Below, in pieces: positions 3,805 through 32,575 of a DNA stretch of 32,575 nucleotides. Position 1 is the first letter of the stretch, and every line of letters starts with the position of its first letter. The translations under genes were made by a program, and so were the position numbers. Origin of the DNA: Chiloscyllium plagiosum (taxonomy: Eukaryota); assembly GCF_004010195.1 (NCBI RefSeq), contig NC_057753.1:14790258-14822832 (forward strand), read 5' to 3'. Below the pieces are notes generated by a model. That model was not told the DNA's origin and made no database searches. It saw nothing but the letters and a program-made list of their open reading frames with translations.

Positions 3805-4250
3805 ACGGAGCGGGAGGAGACGCTCCTTCCTCTGTCCCTCGAAGGCTTCGCCCACGCCCCGGGTCTTGGCTGCCGGGGCAGGGACCCGCTCACATCGTCT
3901 GGGAAAGGCGCCTGGTTTGTGCAGGGGCCTCCCTCGTGCACCGGCTGGGCTGCTCCGGTGCCCCTGCTGCTAATAGCTGCTCATGCAAACCCCAAACAAT
4001 AATAGTCTTTTTTTTTTAAAAAATAAAAAAAGAAATCAACAAAAAAAGGGGGGGGGTTGATGCAGATGCAGCAGCCAGGAATAAGCAGGCAGGTGGGTAA
4101 AGAGCAGCCCTCATGGGCATCCTCTCCCCTCCACAATGGCACACTGCTCCTTTTTGCTCTCTTTTTTTTTCCCTTTTGGTAACAGGGACAATGCAATCCC
4201 CTAAACTCCTCCCCAAAGGAGGGGGATGGCAACAAGGGGCCTTGCAGGCT
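3805..4250 (-). other. Candidate non-coding first exon (5' UTR) of an unidentified minus-strand gene
   Basis: Consensus donor CGT|GTGAGTATCC (plus tactcac, GT at 3804-3803) downstream of the CCAAT cluster; no ATG-initiated ORF runs into the donor; TSS approximate. Confidence 0.55.
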
Positions 4251-4999
4251 GGCAACTCTCAGCAGCACAGGCGCCCGCCCCCCTCCAGCTCGGTGATTGG
4301 CTGGAGGACCGAGGGTCGGCGGCGGACCTCCCAGTGACGACGGGGATCTCCATTGGCCGAGGCGCACGTCGGTCGGGCGAGGGCCCGCCCACCGAAGTCG
4401 GGGCCAGGAATCCGATTGGTTGAGGACGACGTCGTCGGCGGTCCGCCATTGGGTGATGAAGACAGAGGGCCGTCGGGGCGAGGGATTCCATTGGACGGAC
4501 CGGACGCCCATCAAGGCGGACGTCGACGGTCAACAAACGTTAAGAGGCAGGCGCCCGCCCCTTGACGCTGCGAGCCAATGGGTGAGCGCCCGCGCGCTGG
4601 GGGCGGGGAATGGACGAGCGATCCGTCTGTGAGACGTGTCACTCCAACAAGGGACCAATCGGAACACGAGGAGCCGCCGGCTATATTCAACAGAGAGCGG
4701 CTCGACCAAACAGAGCCCGCAGAGGCAATGGGGATTTCTGCATTGTGATTGGTCAGGAGGGGTGTCATTCAGAGATTGGTCCGGCCCACACGCGGGTACC
4801 GCCCTGTTCACGCAGTGACGCGTAACAATGGTAGGAGTCATGAATACTCCGCAACGGAATGAACTGAAGCCGAGCCGGTTGGTTCAAGGCACTGTCAATC
4901 ATGATAGGGCCACGCCCTCTGGCAAGGCTGCTTCCCTTATTGGTCGGAGAAACGTGCCAATCAACGCAAAGCGGGTGGCGAGCTGACGTCAGCTCGCTA

Positions 5000-5182
5000 A
5001 CGGTCGGCCGGTGGCGTCGGGCGGGAGGGGGACGGTTCGCCGATTAAAACCCTCGGCGTCCCGGTGAAAGGGACACAGGGCGCCTCTGCTCTCCACGTCT
5101 TCTCGGAGTGAGAGCACACAGCGTCGGCGGAGGGAGGGGAAGTTGAAAAATAAAATCAAGTGGTAACTGGGTGGAGATTGAG
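5000..5182 (+). other. Candidate non-coding first exon of an unidentified plus-strand gene
   Basis: Follows the CCAAT/CRE cluster; donor GAG|GTACGC with GT at 5183-5184 (alternative TG|GTAACT at 5163); start approximate. Confidence 0.4.
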
Positions 5183-5244
5183 GTACGCATGCGTACAGCG
5201 GGCTGGGTGGGAGATCACTTCTGCGCAGACGCAGTCTCCCCATT

Positions 5245-6898
5245 CAGTGTTGGAGGGTCACGTGTCCTCACTCCCCACTCCCCTCACTCTCAACATTGCA
5301 GTGTCTGCGGGAGGGTCACAGTGTCCTCACTCCTCACTCCCCTCACTCTCAACATTGCAGTGTCTGCGGGAGGGTCACGTGCCCTCACTCCCCACTCCCC
5401 TCACTCTCAACATTGCAGTGTCTGGGGGAGGGTCACACTGCCCTCACTCCCCACTCACCTCACTCTCATCATTGCAGTGTCTAGGGCAGGGTCACAGTGC
5501 CCACACTCCCCAGTCCCCTCACTCTCAACATTGCAGTGTCTAGGGCAGGGTCACAGCCTCACTCCCCATTCCCCTCACTCTCAACATTGCAGTGTCTGGA
5601 GGAGGGTCACAGTGTCCTCACTCCCCACTCCCCTCACTCTCAACATTGCAGTGTCTGGGGGAGGGTCACAGTGTCCTCACTCTCAACATTGCAGTGTCTA
5701 GGGCAGGGTCACAGTGTCCTCAATCCCCACTCCTCTCAATCTCAACATTGCAGTGTCTGGGGGAGGGTCACACTGCCCTCACTCCCCACTCCCCTCACTC
5801 TCAACATTGCAGTGTCTGGGGGAGGGTCACAGTGCCCTCACTCCCCACTCCCCTACTCTCAACATTGCAGTGTCTGGGGCAGGGTCACAGTGACCTCAAT
5901 CCCCACTCCCCTCACTCTCAACATTGCAGTGTCTGGGGCAGGGTCACAGTGACCTCACTCCCCATTCCCCTCACTCTCAACATTGCAGTGTCTGGGGCAG
6001 GGTCACAATGTCCACACTCCCCACTCCCCTCACTCTCAACATTGCAGTGTCTGGGGGAGGGTCAAGTGCCCTCACTCCCCACTCCCCTCACTCTCAACGT
6101 TGCAGTGTCTGGGGAGGGTCACAGTGTCCACACTCCCCAGTCCCCTCACTCTCAACATTGCAGTGTCTGGGGGAGGGTCACGTGCCCTCACTCCCCACTC
6201 CCCTCACTGTCATCATTGCAGTGTCTGGGGGAGGGTCACGTGCCCTCACTCCCCACTCCCCTCACTCTCAACATTGCAGTGTCTGGGGCAGGATCACAGT
6301 GCCCCCACTCCCCATTCCCCTCACTCTCAACATTGCAGTGTCTGGGGGAGGGTCACAGTGCCCTCACTCCCCACTCCTCTAACTCTCAACATTGCAGTGT
6401 CTGGGGGAGGGTCACAGTGCCCTCACTCCCCTCACTCTCAACATTGCAGTGTCTGGGGTAGGGTCACAGTGTCCACACTCCCCACTCCCCTCACTCTCAA
6501 CATTGCAGTGTCTAGGGCAGGGTCACAGTGTCCTCACTCCCCACTCCCCTCACTCTCAACATTGCAGTGTCTGGGGTAGGGTCACAGTGTCCTCACTCCC
6601 CACTCCCCTCACTCTCAACATTGCAGTGTCTGGGGTAGGGTCACAGTGTCCTCACTCCCCACTCCCCTCAGTCTCAACATTGCAGTGTCTGGGGCAGGGT
6701 CACAGTGACCTCACTCCCCACTCCCCTCACTCTCAACATTGCAGTGTCTGGGGAGGGTCACAGTGTCCTCACTCCCCACTCCCCTCAGTCTCAACATTGC
6801 AGTGTCTGGGGTCGGGTCACAGTGCCCTCACTCCCCACTCCTCTAACTCTCAACATTGCAGTGTCTGTGGGAGGGTCACAGGCCCCACACTCCCCATT
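5245..6898. repeat. Minisatellite, ~59-bp unit, roughly 28 copies
   Basis: Unit aacattgcagtgtctgggggagggtcacagtgtcctcactccccactcccctcactctc; e.g. caacattgca at 5291 and 5350. Confidence 0.97.
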
Positions 6899-15690: not shown

Positions 15691-15907
15691 CAGGTTGAGG
15701 TGGATTGGCGTTGCTAAATTTCCCATAGTGCCCAGGGATGTGCAGGTTGAGGTGGATTGGCCGTGCTAAATTACCCATAGTGCCTAGGGATGTGCAGGTT
15801 GAGGTGGATTGGCCGTGCTAAATTACCCATAGTGCCCAGAGATGTGTAGGTTAGGGTGGATTGGCCGTGCTAAATTACCCATAGTGCCCAGGGATGTGCA
15901 GGTTTTT

Positions 15908-16573: not shown

Positions 16574-17014
16574 TGCAGGTTGAGGTGGATTGGCCGTGCT
16601 AAATTGCCCATAGTGCCCAGGGATGTGCAGGTTAGGGTGGATTGGCCGTGCTAAATTACCCATAGTGCCCAGGGATGTGCAGGTTAGGGTGGACTGGCCG
16701 TGCTAAATTACCCATAGTGCCCAGGGATGTATCTGTTAGGGTGGATTGGCCGTGCTAAATTACCCATCGTGCCCAGGGATGTGCAGGTTGAGGTGGATTG
16801 GCCGTGCTAAATTACCCATAGTGCCCAGGGATGTCCAGGTTAGGGTGGATTGGCCGTGCTAAATTACCCATAGTGCATTAGTCAGTTGTAAATGTCGGGG
16901 AATGGGACAGGGTGGGTTGCTCTTCGGAGGGTCAGTGTGGACTTGTTGGACCGAAGGGACTGTTTCCACACTGTAGGGAATCTTAAAAAAAAGTTAACTG
17001 GGGTATCCTTTGTT

Positions 17015-20600: not shown

Positions 20601-21765
20601 TGTCTTTTTTTTCCTGTTTTTTTATTGAAAAAGATTTTTATTTTTTACAAAATTATAAAATTACAAAACAAAGTATAACAATCTTAGGGTATAACAATAA
20701 ACAACCTAGTATTCGACTTTACAAATCAAAAGAACAATCTTCCCACACTACAATTCAATCAATAATTCGACATAATGAGTTAAATTAGGTTTAATTGAGC
20801 TCAACTAACTTAACTTACACCACTCAGCGCCATCCCACCGAAGCTCCCTTCATCGGGAGCATCAGTTAACACAGCCAGAGTGATTTGGGTTTCTTCCCCT
20901 CAGGCCTGCCAAATCCAGTCTTCGTGAGTATATAAAGGCCCGAAGCAGTGTGGCTGACAGATCTGTGTCTGTGTGATTCAGAAAGGGCCCCCCGCCATGT
21001 CTTCTAAAAACAACCTCCGTTTTCTGGTGCACCACGCTTGTAAGGAAGTCTGAGGGAACGTGCTCCGTCACTAACCTACCCCCCCCCCCATAAGGGCGGG
21101 TGTGGGGAGGGAGTTCCCGAGATCCAGCTCGTCAGAGTGCTCCTCCTTCGCTCAGTATGGGAGAGTTCCCAAGCTCACCTAGAGAAGGCAGTTTTCGGTC
21201 ATCCCAAAAGGTGGGATACAGGATCTGCTTAACCTCAGTCCCCGAGATCCCCTCCAACACCTTCGCTGTGGCGCACCAATCCCCACGAATCTTGTGGCAT
21301 GCCCACAAGCAAGGTGTGAGAGTACCGATGTCTGTTTTGCATTCAGGGCACTTTGGACAGGTTCCTTTATGAGATGTCACCCGCCACTCTGGGGCCAGGT
21401 GGGCCCTATGGGGAACCTTTAGTTGCACAGCCTGCATTTTACTACACGTCGAAACCTTTTTTCACATTCCCCCAGATATCCTCCCATGCTCCTGACGAGA
21501 CCTCGGCCCCCCCAATTCCTGAATCCAGACTCTGTCAGGCCTTTCCATATCTTCTGAGGCACCCCCTCCCTGCAGATGATAGAGGGGACTAATCGAGAGA
21601 GTACCTGTGGATCGAAGCACTCTCCTCTCCATATTGGCCTTAGAGGACTGACCCAGCAGCAGCATGGTCCTTCTCTGTGTACGGTCTCTGATCTGAAAAT
21701 AGCGGAAGAGCTCCTTCCTGGATACCCTGTATTTATGACTCAAACTGATCAAACGGCAGAGGTGA

Positions 21766-21886
21766 ACGTGAGGACTGCAGACGCTGGAGATCAGAGTCAA
21801 GATTGGAGTGGTGCTGTGAAAGCACAGGCAGCATCCGAGAGGCAGGAAAAATCGATGTTTCGGGCAAAAGCCCTTCAGCGGGAATG
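21766..21886 (-). mobile_element. Short Penelope-derived element nested in L1
   Basis: gtgaggactgcagacgctggagatcagagtc...gatgtttcgggcaaaagcccttcagcggg; same family as 13565-13669. Confidence 0.8.
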
Positions 21887-22506
21887 CAAAAGACATCATG
21901 ACCTCTCCCTCAGATAGGTCTCCCAAACAGGAGACCCCCTCCAGCCTCACGTACCTTAAAGCCGGAATGCATCCATCCATCCCGGCCGGAATCCCGGTGT
22001 TCCTACTGACGCGGGGTGAGCGGGGAGCTCTGACGCAGATTATTACCCTTGCGTCATTTCTCCGCGCTTTGACCGTGTTCACAGCAGTTGGATTTTTTAC
22101 AAGCACTCCGCGACAGTTCTCATCCTGTCCGCGAATGCGCAAACCAAGACAGGGAACGTTTTGCCCGGGGAAGTCTCAACCTTGTGCCGTAATCGACCTC
22201 GGATCCTGCCGAGCCCAGTCCCTCACACGAGGCAATAAAGAACTTATTCGATACCTTTTGAAGTCTGGGAGGTCGACCCATCGCCCATTCCCTGCGGAAG
22301 CTGCAGCTGAGCAAACTTATTAAGAGGGGTGCCAAGCCAACCAGGAAGTCTCCCCAGCGCCTGCCGAGGTAGCACCAGAGGGAGCATTCGCATGGGCTAT
22401 AGTCGGCGATGAAGAGCGTCCATTTTGATCAGAGCTATTTGACCCAACCAGGATGTCGGTAGCCCCTCCTAATGCCGGAGGTCTTGTCTTACCTTCTCAA
22501 ACCAAG

Positions 22507-23089
22507 TCCATTGAGTACAGGAGTTGAGAAGTCATGTCGCAGCTGTACAGGACATCGGTTTTGGAATATCGCGTGCAATTCTAGTCTCTTCCCCGCTAAA
22601 GCAAGGGTGTTGTGAAAAGGGTTCAGAAAAGATTTACAAGGATGTTGGAGGGTTTGAGCTGTATGGGAGAGGTTGGGTCTGTTTCCCCTGGAGCGTCAGA
22701 GGCTGAGGGGGTGACCTTGTAGAGGTTTATAAAATCATGAGGAGACATGGACAGGGTAAATAGACAAAGTCTTTTCCCCCTGGGGTGAGGGAGTCCAGAA
22801 CTAGAGGGGCATAGGTTTAGAGTGAGAGGGGAAAGATATAAAAGGGAGCTGAGGGGTAACTTTTTCACCCAGAGGGTGGTACGTGTATGGAATGAGCTGC
22901 CAGAGGAAGTGGTGGAGGCTGGTACAATGACATAATTTAAAAGGCATCAGGATGGGGACAGGGATAGGAAGGGTTTAGAGCGATATGGGCCAAGTGCTGG
23001 CAAACGGGACTAGATTGGGTTGGGATATCTGGGTCGGCATGGATGAGTTGGACTGAAGGGTCTATTTCCGTGCAGTACGTCTCTATGAC
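22507..23089 (+). mobile_element. HER1/CR1 LINE 3' fragment nested in L1
   Basis: Well-preserved CR1 3' ORF2 and tail ggactgaagggtctatttccgtgcagtacgtctctatgac; inverse copy at 27862-28520. Confidence 0.9.
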
Positions 23090-26000
23090 CCCAAGACTCT
23101 AATTGTACAATTGGTGAAAGGCTAGGGTAATGAAAATACCCAAATATAGGAAACCTCCCTGGGACCAGCTAAAGGAAATCGAGTCCCATCTTCCAGATCA
23201 GGTACTCCCACAATACCCTCCTCCCCTTCCCCCCACGGGCGTGGCCTCTGATTTCCTAAAATCAATCTTACACCCCGAAAAAGTGCCAAATAAATCAATA
23301 TTTTGTGTTAAACGGGGCACAGACGTTGCTGGGTTAGCCGGAAAGAGAAGAACATCATCTGCAATAGAGAGTGATTTTATGCTGTCCCATTCCCACTGCT
23401 GGGGCAGCTATTCTGGGGTCCTTCCGGATACTCTCAGCCAATGGCTCGATCAATAAAGTGAACGGCTGTGGCAAAAGGGGGCACCCTTGTCGGCTGCCTC
23501 TACCAATACTAAAATTGGCTGACTTTCTGCCATTTGTGAGAACCGCTGTCATGGGATTGCCGTACAACACTCACACACCCACCTGGCGAAGACCAAACCC
23601 CCCCCCCCCAAAAAAAACCTAACCGTTCCAAGACATTAAAGAGGTACGGCCATTCCACCCGACCGAACGCTTTTTCCATTTCGAGGGAGACTACCAAGCC
23701 CGGGATCGACCCTTGCTGGCACACCCGGACCATATTCAACACTCTCTCTGGTGTTGTCAGACCCTTACTGAAACCTGTCTGGCCCTCCGTTGTAACAGAG
23801 GGCAGTAACTTCTCCAGCCTCAGCGCTAACGTTTTAGACAGAATTTTGAAATCCGCATTTAGCGGTGAGGTGGCCCTGTACAAGGCGCAGTGCTCAGGAT
23901 CTTTCCCTCCCTTAAGAATAAGGGAAATATTAGCTTCCCTGAGAGGCAGTCCGGACTGTACGTATGGTTACACATGCCCCGACATTGGCTTGGCCTGCAG
24001 GTCTATAAACTCCTTATAAAACACGCTCAGGAGTCTGTCTGGGCCAGGCACTTCGGAGCTGCCTTGCCACCTCTTGTATCCCTTGTGTTGTCAGAGGGGT
24101 TTTCAAAAGGGAGTCCTGCTCCAAAGTTATACCTGAAAGATCCAGGTGCTCATAAACAAGGACTCCATCCTCACCACCTCACCCTCACAGCCCTCCAGCC
24201 GGTATACCTCTGCATTGAATGTCCTAAAAGCTGCGTTGATCTTTTTTCGGACTCACCAGTGGGAGTACCAGTACCCTCCCTAATGGACCTGAGGAACGCT
24301 CTTCCTCCTGGCCAGATATGCCAAGTATCTACCTGGCTTATCATTGTACTCAAATAGTCTTTGCTTCGTGAAGGAGACCTCTCTCTCTTCACTGCCTGGG
24401 TGAGCACAGAGTTCAGAGCAGCCCGGAGAGCCATAATCCGCTGTAACTCAGTCACAGATGGGCTGTCCAAATATGCCGCCTCAGCTGCCTCCAACCGGGC
24501 CTCAAGTGTACGCCGTGGCTCTCCCCTCTGCCCTGTCCGGGCCGCTGAGTATGAGATAATTATATCCCTCAAACAGGCCTTGGCAGTCTCCCAGAGCGCC
24601 GATGGGTCACCCTGGCCGTGCCCGAATTAATATCCCAGAAAGCCCGAAACTCCCTTGGGAAATACTCGACGAGATTACTGTCTTCCAAGAGAAAAGGATC
24701 CATGCCACGTGTCTGTTCCATTAGCCCTGATTGTGACCTCCGAATACACCGCCACATGGTCCAAGATGGCTCCATCCCCGATCCTACAGGATAGTACCGA
24801 ATCCGAAGAGATGGGTGGAGCGAAGAGCATCTTGAACCTTGTGTGGCACTCATGTGGGTCGAAGGAGAAAGTAAAAACCCCTTCCCTCAGGGTGAAGAAA
24901 CGTCCACCAGCCCCAACTCCCCGCAACTGTTCGGATTGCGGGGAGATGCCCGAGAGGTCCCTCGGCATCCTGCCCACCTCGGGATCCATAAGACGGTTGG
25001 AGTCTCCCCCCTATAATCGTATGGCGCACCCAGAGAGCCACCAGCCTGGGAAGTGCATCTGTTAAACAGGGGGGGCGGGGGGGGGGGACAAGTAGACATT
25101 CAAAATGCCGTACCCCTCCCCGCTTTGAGGATGACAAACCGGCCACGTTAGTCCTTAATTTGGTCTTATCAACTGGAATGGGAGATTCTTCCTTATTAGT
25201 AAAGCCACACCTCTGCTTTTGGAACTGTAAGACAATAGGAACACCCGGCCGAACTTCCCCCTGCTGTAACTTTACCGTGTAAGTGCGTTCCTTGTAGCAG
25301 AGCGCCATTGGCCCTCTCCTTGCTGAGAGTCAAGGGCTCTGTCGTTCTCTTAACTGGCGAGGGACTTCCCTCTATGTTCCGGGTGCACCGTCGAAACAAA
25401 CAACGAGCCATAACCATCCAGAGCGGCCCGGGGAGCGGCCCGGGGACCCCCCGCACCCCACCGAGAGGAAAAGCCCCATTCATAATGAGACAAGAAAAGA
25501 CTCATAAAAGCCACACACAAAAAAAAACAACCACACACAACCAAAACAACAACTCTTAATAGCTACTCCTAAGATAAACAAAAGCCAATTAACTGGAGAC
25601 CGTAGGGGGCCACTCACTAACACCTCTGTGGCTCCTCCCAGCTGAAGTCGCGCCCCAAACCCAGGCGAAGGAAACGTATGTCTCCTACACGACGGAAATT
25701 AAAAGTGGGCATCCAACCCATCCCACCCGCACGTCGATCCCACTTGTTAGCAATAAAAGACATGACCACCCCAGACCAAAAGAAAAACCAAAGGGGGGGG
25801 GTAACAGGGACGAACAAAAATAACAAGGGAGAGAAGGGAACATAACGTCCCCACACATTACAGGAACAAAGCCAGCGCAGACAAAGTAAACAACAGAGTG
25901 AACAAAGAAGACACTTGTCCATTGTATTTGATCCCACCCAGTCTATTTTAAAGCATCCAGGAAATCCTTCTCTACTGAAGCAAAATTATACATGGACCCT

Positions 26001-26584
26001 CCAGGGCTCTGAAGTGTAACTGGGTGCCTGGCAGAGTTTTGAACGTTCAAGCCTCTCAGCCTCTTCCTTACTCCAACCAGAGGTTTCCCTCTTCCTCATC
26101 ACAGCCCCAGAGAAGTCCCGGATTAAAAAAAAAAGGCATGATTTTCCACCCCTTGTACGTCAGGGCCTGTGGGTCTTTCCCCGAAGCTCCGGAAGCTTCC
26201 GTAACCATTTTTGTTTTGTCTCCGTAACGTTGAGATGTTGGATCTCCTGCTCGTGCTTTTGTAGCAGTCTTGGTCCGGGACCCCTCCGGTGCCGATTCAA
26301 TCTCCTCTCGGAGTTTGACGAACTCCGACACCAAACTGTGCTGCTTAGGTAAGTTCAAAGGCGGGAGTCAGCACCGGGGCAGGGGGTGGGGGGAGGGGTG
26401 CGGTCCCCACGGCCCCTTCCCTTTAGTCATCTTCCCTGAACGTTAAAAGCGATATTTAAAGATTCTGGGGGCTTTACAATGCTGATTTTTACGAAAACGG
26501 CTTCGTCAGGGGAGGGTGAAAGCGCGCACGTTGCCTGGATTGTGGTGCGGAGCTCAGCAAGGCAGGCCCGCCACCTTGAATCCC

Positions 26585-29640: not shown

Positions 29641-29866
29641 GATAACATTATCCCCCTCTCACCCATCGCCCCAATTACTGTACACACACCATCTCCCCGA
29701 TAACCTTACACAGCCCCTAACCCCAATAACCTTTCACCCCCGACCACCCCAATAAACCTTCACCCCATCACCGCCCTGATAACCTTTCACCCCCACCACC
29801 CCATCACTGCCCCGATAACTTTACACACTCCCCTCTCGATAACCTTTCACCCCCACCACCCAAATA

Positions 29867-29907: not shown

Positions 29908-30207
29908 CGACCACTAGGACTCATAACAGCACACAAACCAACAGCCACGCTCAGACAACAACTCACCAGGACAAAGGACCCGATACCCAGCATGAGCAAA
30001 ACCAACGTAGTATACAAAATCCCATGCAAGGACTGCACAAAACACTACACAGGACAAACAGGAAGACAGCTAACGATCCGTATCCATGAACACCAACTAG
30101 CCACGAAATGACACGACCAGCTTAGTAGCCACACACGCAGACGACAAGCAACATGAGTTTGACTGGGGCAACACTACTATTATAGGACAAGCCAAACAGA
30201 GAACAGC

Positions 30208-30287
30208 GCTGAAAATGTGTTGCTGGAAAAGCGCAGTAGGTCAGGCAGCATCCAGGGAACAGGAGAATCGACGTTTCAGGAATGAAG
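30208..30287 (-). mobile_element. 80-bp Penelope-derived insertion inside the Penelope ORF
   Basis: Perfect 14-bp TSD aaacagagaacagc at 30194-30207 and 30288-30301. Confidence 0.85.
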
Positions 30288-30480
30288 AAACAGAGAACAG
30301 CCAGGGAATTCCTAGAGGCATGGCATTCATCCACTGATTCAATCAACAAGCACATCGACCTGGACCCAATATACCGGCCACTGCAGCGGACAGCTGGAAC
30401 TGACACCCGGAAGCGGCAGAGACAAACCACTATAAATGCCGGAGGAAAGATCACAGAAGCGCTTCACAGGAGGCTCCCAA

Positions 30481-30520
30481 GCACCGAGGATGTCACCTAG
30501 ACAGGGGACGAAACGTCTGC
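30481..30520 (+). ncRNA. Minimal type-I hammerhead ribozyme motif (U4C variant) in Penelope pLTR
   Basis: GCA-CCGAGGA-T-GTCacctagacagggGAC-GAAAC-GTC-TGC: stem I gca/tgc, stem II gtc/gac, palindromic ACGT stem III, GUC cleavage triplet ending at 30517. Confidence 0.7.
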
Positions 30521-31049
30521 AACACAAATTCCCAGTTCGGCGAACAGAACCACAACAATCTTTCACCTCATTGTTGCCCCAATAACCTTTCACCCCATCA
30601 CCACCCTGATAACCTTTCACCCCATTGTTTCCCCGATAACCTTTCACCCCATCACCATCCTGATAACCTTTCACCCCATTGTTTCCCCGATAACCTTTCA
30701 CCCCATCACCGTCCTGATAACCTTTCACCCCATTGTTTCCCCGATAACCTTTCGCCCCATCACCGTCCTGATAACCTTTCACCCCATTGTTTCCCCGATA
30801 ACCTTTCGCCCCATCACCGTCCTGATAACCTTTCACCTCATTGTTGCCCCAATAACCTTTCACCCCATCACCGTCCTAATAACTTTTCACCCCCTGCTGC
30901 CCTGATAACCTTTCACCCCATCACCGCCCTGATAACCTTTCACCTCCCCACCTTTCACCCCAATAGCCTTTCCCTAACAGATCCGATAACCTTTGAACCC
31001 CCATAACCTTTCACCCCTTTGCTTATCCAGGACATCTTGAAGTGTGCAA

Positions 31050-32575
31050 CTGGGGGCGGGTCCTGTGGGGGGTAGGTTGCGAGGGTCGGCCAATGGTAGG
31101 CACTCCCCGTTAACGGACAGAGGCGGTATCCAATAGGGGTCCAGATAGCGGCACTTCTTAGTTGATAGACAGTGGTGTCCACCAATTGGGTGCGGGCGGA
31201 CTTTGACGAACGGGGATGTTGTCCAATGAGACGACGCGACAGTCCGTGCCTCGGGCGGACCGGTCGCCAATGGTCGTCGACGGGAGGTGGTGCTATCCAA
31301 TGGGCGCGAGAGCCTGGGGCACAAATGTGGACGTAAGTGACGTGTCCAATAAATGGGGGCGTTCCCGTCAGGGGCGGGGTTCAGGGTTGACGGACGGGCT
31401 AATCATCCAATGGGACGCCGGGGACAGGACCTCACTGACGGTCGGTGAGCCGTTAGTCCAATAGGGTGACGGAACGAAAGTCGAGCGGCTGACTGATGGG
31501 CAGTTAGCCCAATGGGATGAGGGGAAGGCGGGACCCCACTGACGACCGGTGAAGCATTCGCCCAATAGGGTGACGGGAGGCGGGCCCTGACTGTAACCGA
31601 CGGCCGTTTAGCTCAATGAGGTGACGGTAAGTGGGACCCGATGGTGGTAGGTGTGCAATGAGCGCGATAGGACACGGAGAGGCGGGACCTGACTGTGACC
31701 GTCGGGCCAATGGAATGTGGGGAGGCGGGACCGCACTGCGACCGACGGCCCATTCGCCCAATAAGGCGGCTGGTAGGGGGCACCCGCCTGTGACCGTCCG
31801 CCCTTTTACCCAATGGGGCTGTGTGAAGGCGGGACCAGACTGTGACCGACGGCCCTTTAGCCCAATGGGGTGACGAGGAGCGGCGGCGTAAGGGGGGACG
31901 GGTCCCATTGTGACCAAAAGAGCGACCGGGAAGGGGCGGGACGAGACTGTGACCGACGTCCCTTTCGCCCAATGGGGTGACGGGAGCGACGGCGACCTCA
32001 CAGTGAGCGTTGGCCCTTTCGCCCGATGGGGCGCTGCTGGAAAGGGCGGGGAACCCGACTGTGACCGACGGCCGTCTGGTCCAATAGGATGTGTCGAAGC
32101 TTCCCCCCCCCGCCCCACATCTTTGTGACCAACGAGGCGCGCGTGGCAAGGGGCGGGGAACCCGACTGTGACCGACGGGCCGTGGTGTGGCCCAATAGGA
32201 TGTGAGGGGAGCGCGTCCCTCCCCCTCATCCTGACCAATGGGACGCGCGCGGGAAGGGGCGGGGAGACCCGACTGTGACCGACGGCCATTTGGCCCAATC
32301 GGGGGCCTGGGGCGTCAGGCAGCTCGCCCCCCCCCCCCTTTTTGTTTTGTTCCCAACCCACCGGACGGCCCAATGGGGCGTCGGCCCCACCCCTGACGTA
32401 CCCCTGGTTGGGGCGGGCGTTGGGGGCTCGCCTACCCAATGGCGTACGGCGTGCGTGGCGGAAGTCCCTCCCACCCTTCCTCCTTCCTCCCTCCCTCTCT
32501 CTCCCTCTCTCTCTCTCGGTGGCCGCCATTTTGTGTCTGGTCCCGTGTCCGCGGCAGGAGAGCGCGCCTTTCTGT
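31050..32575 (+). promoter_or_regulatory. CpG-island promoter built on a CCAAT/GC-box tandem array; probable TSS near 32470-32520 of an unidentified plus-strand gene
   Basis: 22 plus-strand CCAAT; repeated GGCGGG; ETS CGGAAGT 32459-32465; pyrimidine tract 32466-32517; YY1 motif CCGCCATTTT 32523-32532. Confidence 0.8.

Follow-up and report, generated by a model that had tools for sequence, protein, structure and literature searches.

A CpG island of Chiloscyllium plagiosum carrying about a dozen tandemly duplicated DECA-CCAAT composites, in each of which the two sites are set 11 bp apart, is probably the promoter of a cellular gene that would start at about 32500-32525 and would load PBX-PREP, NF-Y and Sp2. 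The island lies at the right-hand end of the window, by which we mean the whole stretch of 32,575 nucleotides analysed (contig NC_057753.1), and all positions are counted from the first letter of that stretch. In the array, duplication is likely to have built a promoter platform of unusual size for a protein complex that is already known. While the DECA-CCAAT motif has been described before, the scale on which it is used here and its tandem origin appear to be new.

Organization and copy number of the array

The array extends over approximately 1.35 kb, and about half of its boxes are preceded by a DECA-like word at exactly 11 bp. All 22 plus-strand CCAAT positions given in the initial annotation match exactly, as do the variant boxes at 31613 (TCAAT), 31914 (CCAAA) and 32023 (CCGAT); two further variants, at 31655 and 32129, bring the total to 27 boxes. 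In 2000 dinucleotide shuffles the mean number of CCAAT per array was 0.89 and the maximum 5, against the 22 observed, while GGCGGG occurs 12 times against 2.6 expected. ATTGG, which is CCAAT on the opposite strand, is found once within the array. The parts of the array are listed below.

31055..32440 (+), whole array: 22 CCAAT boxes, five variants and 14 GC boxes (GGCGG[G/A]), with a DECA-like word 11 bp ahead of 13 boxes; CpG island
31055..31411 (+), distal diverged part: eight CCAAT boxes
Before CCAAT 31182 and 31407 (+), distal DECA at 11 bp, exact; before 31130 and 31223 (+), the same with one mismatch
31412..32085 (+), duplicated core: units of ~52 bp with the order GC box, DECA, 11 bp, CCAAT
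CCAAT 31758, 31862, 31969 and 32081 (+), exact composites of the core
CCAAT 31509, 31613 and 31810 (+), one-mismatch composites of the core
CCAAT 31458 (gap 14) and 31707 (gap 3) (+), shifted DECA-like words of the core
32086..32299 (+), higher-order units of ~107 bp: a DECA-CCAAT unit alternates with a DECA-less CCAAT or CCAAT-like unit
CCAAT 32295 (+), exact composite in the higher-order part
CCAAT 32192 (+), exact DECA at gap 15 and a one-mismatch register at gap 11
32300..32440 (+), proximal part: CCAAT 32370 and 32436, TGACGT at 32394, GC box at 32412

No DECA is present in the proximal part (32300..32440). The spacing of 51-55 bp originally described for the core holds for 11 of the 12 spacings between 31407 and 32023 but for only 12 of 26 array-wide. 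Likewise, the consensus of an alignment of 14 core units bears out the CCAAT/GC-box module, but CTGTGACCGACGG, the complete word, is present just four times.

A single contig from an independent DNA run (X1), spanning 30945-32463, covers the array and differs from it in 17 letters plus 6 gap letters; the array is not an assembly artefact. At 3.85, the depth of this contig over the array does not exceed the 4.6-8.7 of four short side matches, and at 84% likeness, a level below which older copies would escape, the same run showed no second copy. The array is apparently single-copy.

Tandem duplication had been proposed as the builder of the core, and Tandem Repeats Finder bears this out with periods of 52 and 107. 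The best 50-nt self-identity is 0.76 at lag 52, 0.92 at lag 107 and 0.86 at lag 249, and self-comparison reveals further duplications at lags 104, 107, 145, 214 and 249. Just one of the ten inner branches of the unit tree is supported (that joining 31458 with 31562) and the tree thus gives no order of duplications; several units carry indels that break the spacing. Comparison of the runs with the window listed 25 differences, seven of which were dropped (one outside the array, six clustered with indels at a run of C). Two of the 18 substitutions retained fall in motifs, against 3.3 expected (P=0.34); one substitution disrupts CCAAT 31297, and no DECA core is affected. Both long contigs (X1 and X2), albeit a small sample, keep the unit structure of the window, with no unit-number alleles. 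A further run (X11) yielded three pieces of 148-166 nt with 98-100% identity to the array, which are too close for a cross-species comparison.

Elsewhere the window contains a second CpG island (4250-5250, observed/expected CpG 1.02) with eight CCAAT on the minus strand and three on the plus strand and with no tandem structure. It holds two exact DECA-11-CCAAT composites (minus strand, 4770 and 4374) and, near 4900, a TGATTGACAG without mismatch; its only match to the array is 25 nt long (E=5.9). Lying 27 kb from the array, this island is likely to be a promoter that drives transcription leftward or both ways, in a head-to-head arrangement with the array. Directly adjoining this left island is a 59-bp minisatellite (5252-6896; 28.5 copies), which mirrors the 27/54-bp minisatellite (29650-29866 and 30545-31025; 16 GATAA and 6 CCAAT words) that abuts the array. 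An assembly gap and a retroelement-like fragment (29908-30545) lie between the two parts of the latter; we take the translation of this fragment to resemble the tail of a Penelope-type GIY-YIG endonuclease, although it has no Pfam match. A decayed LINE-like element occupies 20900-26400 on the minus strand, with an RVT_1 match above cut-off at 23512-23967. An unrelated 52-bp tandem repeat (15691-15904 and 16574-16876), interrupted by assembly gaps and carrying one ATTGG per unit, apparently derives from the end of a SINE.

The DECA site, its geometry and its conservation

The initial annotation noticed a third motif in the module and took it to be unrecognised. It is in fact already known as DECA, one half of the published DECA-CCAAT composite, whose GAnnGAC-11 bp-CCAAT geometry it matches to the base, and it is identifiable as a site for the TALE proteins PBX-PREP/PKNOX. 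The word TGACCGACGG ends nine bases before CCAAT, which in the published notation is GAnnGAC-11bp-CCAAT. The array contains 10 exact GAnnGAC cores on the plus strand and one on the minus strand. At 11 nt, an exact GAnnGAC precedes seven of the 27 boxes, and 13 boxes are counted when one mismatch is allowed, one of these (32192) being an offset register of a site that matches exactly at 15 bp; at gaps of 9, 10, 12 and 13 before the 27 boxes there is none. All seven exact composites place DECA 5' of CCAAT on the same strand, with the GAC half beside CCAAT. A DECA at 11 bp is missing from 14 boxes, including the two nearest the predicted start. Across the whole window, and with gaps of 9-13 considered, all nine composites have a gap of 11 (seven in the array, two in the other CpG island). 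Measured against the array's own background, the 11-bp DECA has P values of ~2e-13 (exact) and 5e-13 (at most one mismatch), both inflated by duplication; the core values of about 1e-13 overstate the case because the core units are not independent.

In the mouse Sp2 promoter the half-sites are given as cGA and GACgg, with two uncontacted bases between them, and the composite is described as bound by PBX1:PREP1 and NF-Y with Sp2 as a bridge; the accompanying models, which are predictions, accommodate gaps of 10-12 bp, whereas at 13 the Sp2 bridge is lost and at 8-9 there are clashes (bioRxiv 10.64898/2026.02.16.706105). The forms TGACCGACGG and CGACCGACGG found in the array correspond to the cGA and GACgg half-sites of mouse Sp2. 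The idea that a methylated TGACCGACGG might mimic TGACTGACAG was dropped, since the island appears to be free of methylation and GACgg is already the form found at the mouse Sp2 site.

Between 31090 and 32440 a pyrimidine occupies position -1 in 17 of the 22 CCAAT boxes, and the DECA-linked CCAAT boxes have T at -4 in 10 of 11 cases and G at +7 in all 11. NF-Y prefers a purine at -1, and hence the boxes with a pyrimidine there may be weak sites that lean on their partners.

The distal part is the better guide to whether the spacing has been selected or simply copied. All eight of its CCAAT boxes are perfect; two have an exact DECA at 11 bp (P=1.3e-4) and four have one with at most one mismatch (P=7e-5). 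Outside the motifs, the four distal DECA units are 0.29-0.40 identical to one another and 0.30-0.39 identical to the core, where chance is 0.28. That units with spacers this close to chance have kept the 11 bp points to selection on the DECA-CCAAT geometry, while the units themselves could be very old duplicates rather than independent origins. The other gaps of the module vary, from 4 to 13 between GC box and DECA and from 13 to 42 between CCAAT and GC box.

Within the core, the suggestion that the spacers are more diverged than the motifs holds only in part. Column identity over 14 aligned core units is 0.91 for CCAAT (a value that is partly circular, as the units were cut at CCAAT), 0.73 for the DECA core, 0.64 for the DECA-CCAAT linker, 0.54 for the GC-to-DECA spacer, 0.53 for the GC box and 0.40 for the CCAAT-to-GC spacer. 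DECA exceeds all spacer columns taken together (p=0.03), but against only the linker its advantage is not significant (p=0.16); nor is the GC box distinguished from the spacers (p=0.25). When all 18 boxes of 31407-32295 are compared ungapped, DECA positions (0.45) have no advantage over the linker (0.46), a consequence of the loss or shift of DECA in about half of the boxes. With the GC box as the least conserved motif, the core of the module is likely to be TALE/NF-Y/Sp2 rather than the NF-Y/Sp1 pairing first put forward.

These observations bear on a different history, in which slippage turned a single functional promoter unit into a minisatellite, so that a few start-proximal boxes matter and the remainder is decaying. 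The tandem-repeat-rich surroundings, with the 27/54-bp repeat abutting the array and the 59-bp repeat beside the other island, would be in keeping with it, as would the boxes that lack DECA, the indels that break the spacing of several units and the between-sample substitutions, which do not clearly avoid motifs. We nonetheless regard it as unlikely, given that the most diverged distal units hold CCAAT in eight of eight and the 11-bp DECA in four of eight boxes with spacers near chance, that CpG is retained along the entire array, and that sequencing run X2, whose library type is unrecorded, covers the array from end to end.

Helical phasing, to which the initial annotation attached a same-face NF-Y/Sp1 platform, stands for the ten core spacings (P=1e-4), which descend from one duplicated unit, but is not significant for the other 16 (P=0.17). 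The absolute phase of the 22 boxes gives R=0.34 (P ~0.08 at 10.5 bp per turn). Core spacings of 51-53 bp are accompanied by one 42-bp step that is still in phase, and CCAAT direct repeats in human promoters, there described as dimers and not as a run of twenty-odd boxes, peak at 31, 41, 52 and 63 bp, with 52 bp in common with the array (PMC4982600). NF-Y contacts are reported to span -7 to +17 (PMC4982600). In four units of the core the first base of the GC box is at +17 or +18, and DECA covers -19 to -10, which leaves little of a 52-bp unit uncovered; no in-phase length much below five turns would be expected to accommodate all three sites. The core spacings, the human CCAAT pairs and a lean of the distinct spacing values towards phase (P=0.05) would be expected if same-face NF-Y bends had been selected, with TGACCGACGG a passenger or bound by an unknown factor. 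Phase, however, lacks significance outside the core, conservation of the GC box does not exceed that of the spacers, and the third word stands to the base at the published DECA position, which makes that explanation improbable.

Promoter setting and predicted start

The array region has a GC content of 0.65 and an observed/expected CpG of 0.88 over 1526 bp, compared with a CpG ratio of 0.44 elsewhere in the window. A CpG island has GC above 0.5, observed/expected CpG above 0.6 and a length above 500 bp, and the region passes these thresholds as well as being TATA-less. The ETS and YY1 elements named in the initial annotation have counterparts in ETS-like and YY1-like words at 32459 and 32525, and TATA[AT]A is absent over the 1526-bp region. 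The elements downstream of the array are as follows.

32459..32465 (+), CGGAAGT, which we take to be an ETS-like word
32465..32517 (+), pyrimidine-rich tract
32522..32532 (+), GCCGCCATTTT, presumably a YY1-like word

The YY1-like word lies 89 nt after the last CCAAT. CCAAT boxes are reported to lie typically ~80 bp upstream of the start (PMC3730095), while YY1 lies at or just 3' of the start, which is set by the most 3' factor (PMC11269187); from these positional rules transcription is predicted to start near 32500-32525. The first exon is likely to extend past the end of the window, and no splice-donor match occurs downstream before that end. A polyA single-cell RNA run (X15) gave no reads in a sample of ~2% of the run with 32464-32575 skipped as repeat.

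A Pfam search of 300 of the 331 stop-free frames of at least 45 aa in the window found no cellular coding exon, RVT_1 (23512-23967) being the only match above cut-off, and the long open frames over the array were rejected as coding as they have no Pfam match. Rfam gave no matches. A sigma-70 scan was set aside as inapplicable to a vertebrate promoter. The 19-nt word at the YY1-like site recurs at nine loci in metagenome contigs, none with a CCAAT array or DECA composite, and these loci are read as chance; the GC-DECA-CCAAT pattern has no match in viral contigs.

In run X2 a 1245-nt contig has a depth of 15 over 31161-32404, against 2.8 on the flank, an enrichment that would fit an open-chromatin or ChIP-type library. 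Each of the small runs X2-X5 (160-201 million letters), which belong to one study and of which X2 alone was mapped to the array, contains 56-62% of the array's words.

A putative TALE/NF-Y/Sp2 platform and its known relatives

In the mechanism that we favour, each composite would load PBX-PREP and NF-Y with Sp2 as the bridge. PBX is reported to contact the left half-site and PREP the GACgg half-site, and Sp2 to stabilise joint binding of TALE and NF-Y on the composite (bioRxiv 10.64898/2026.02.16.706105); in published work NF-Y binds and bends CCAAT, and Sp2 links TALE and NF-Y when the gap is about 10-12 bp. Sp1 and Sp3 would occupy the GC box, which in the core begins 17-18 bp downstream of the first C in the preceding CCAAT, where the NF-Y contacts end. 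Sp1 and Sp3 are described as binding GC boxes and Sp2 as sitting at tandem CCAAT, with a ChIP signal that grows with CCAAT number (PMC4368557), and Sp2 is recorded in elephant shark and whale shark (10.1101/570598). The array would thereby hold ~1.3 kb open and unmethylated in surroundings filled with transposons (retroelement debris and minisatellites) and would focus initiation 3' of the last CCAAT, so that a broadly expressed gene would be driven from its right end. Units would turn over by duplication and decay, with the 11-bp rule retained.

The array fits the DECA-CCAAT definition by sequence, and its closest counterpart is the mouse Sp2 promoter, with which it shares GAnnGAC-11 bp-CCAAT, the order and strand of the sites, the GACgg half-site and tandem CCAAT in a promoter-like island (bioRxiv 10.64898/2026.02.16.706105; PMC4368557; PMC11802806). 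The mouse promoter is described with five CCAAT within 150 bp, three of them DECA-linked, whereas the array has 22-27 boxes over 1.35 kb, 12-13 of them DECA-linked, and is visibly tandem-duplicated (bioRxiv 10.64898/2026.02.16.706105). The TALE/NF-Y elements of zebrafish likewise place DECA beside CCAAT, ~20 bp from start to start, but their reported consensus is TGATTGACAG and the elements tested are enhancers, in contrast to the CpG-rich TGACCGACGG form and promoter-like setting seen here (PMC6023610; 10.1101/720102). A factor site tandemly multiplied in a cellular promoter is also known from the 33-bp VNTR of TRIB3, for which one to five young, near-identical copies and length alleles are described, while the units of the array are old and diverged and show no whole-unit length difference in two runs (PMC7425993). 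In a literature search that left most subscription papers outside its scope, no tandem DECA-CCAAT array was found in a cellular promoter of any vertebrate.

The U3 region of ERV9/LTR12 also has a duplication-built run of CCAAT units (5-17 copies) upstream of the start; its units are 41 nt long with GATA and MZF1 sites, and the element is reported with thousands of copies and a TATA-like box (PMC11853044; PMC3730095), as opposed to the ~52-bp units with DECA and GC box, the apparent single copy and the lack of TATA of the array. Although the tandem ~41-nt CCAAT repeats of LTR12 (PMC11853044) and the abundance of retroelement pieces in the window invite the thought that the array belongs to a retroviral LTR, or to some other mobile element, as its U3-like enhancer, this is very improbable in view of the one X1 contig at depth 3.85 with no second copy at 84% likeness, the missing TATA, the lack of other copies in the window or in viral contigs, and the NF-Y-bound MER elements, which are described with the TALE site 3' of CCAAT and ~50 bp from it, unlike the array (PMC12065363).

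With TALE/NF-Y/Sp2 as the preferred core of the module, a more far-reaching and decidedly tentative proposal is that this amplified module, together with Sp1 and laid wall-to-wall over 1.3 kb, might be a natural chromatin opener that shields a dosage-critical early-embryo gene from transposon DNA, the 11-bp rule being kept through the birth and death of units. TALE/NF-Y elements are reported to be active at genome activation in zebrafish (PMC6023610, 10.1101/720102, PMC11802806). If the proposal is true, the array would exceed in size every DECA-CCAAT cluster described so far and would trace the element back to cartilaginous fish.

The 11-bp rule for DECA-CCAAT has so far been based on ChIP in mouse, human and zebrafish, on gel shifts and on AlphaFold models. 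The array offers a natural series, with a dozen units at 11 bp, whose spacers have diverged as far as chance, and further units at 3, 14 and 15 bp, and adds evolutionary evidence for the rule. It may also serve as a substrate for asking whether multiple TALE/NF-Y/Sp2 complexes act additively, cooperatively or redundantly, and whether arrays of this kind hold promoters open among transposons.
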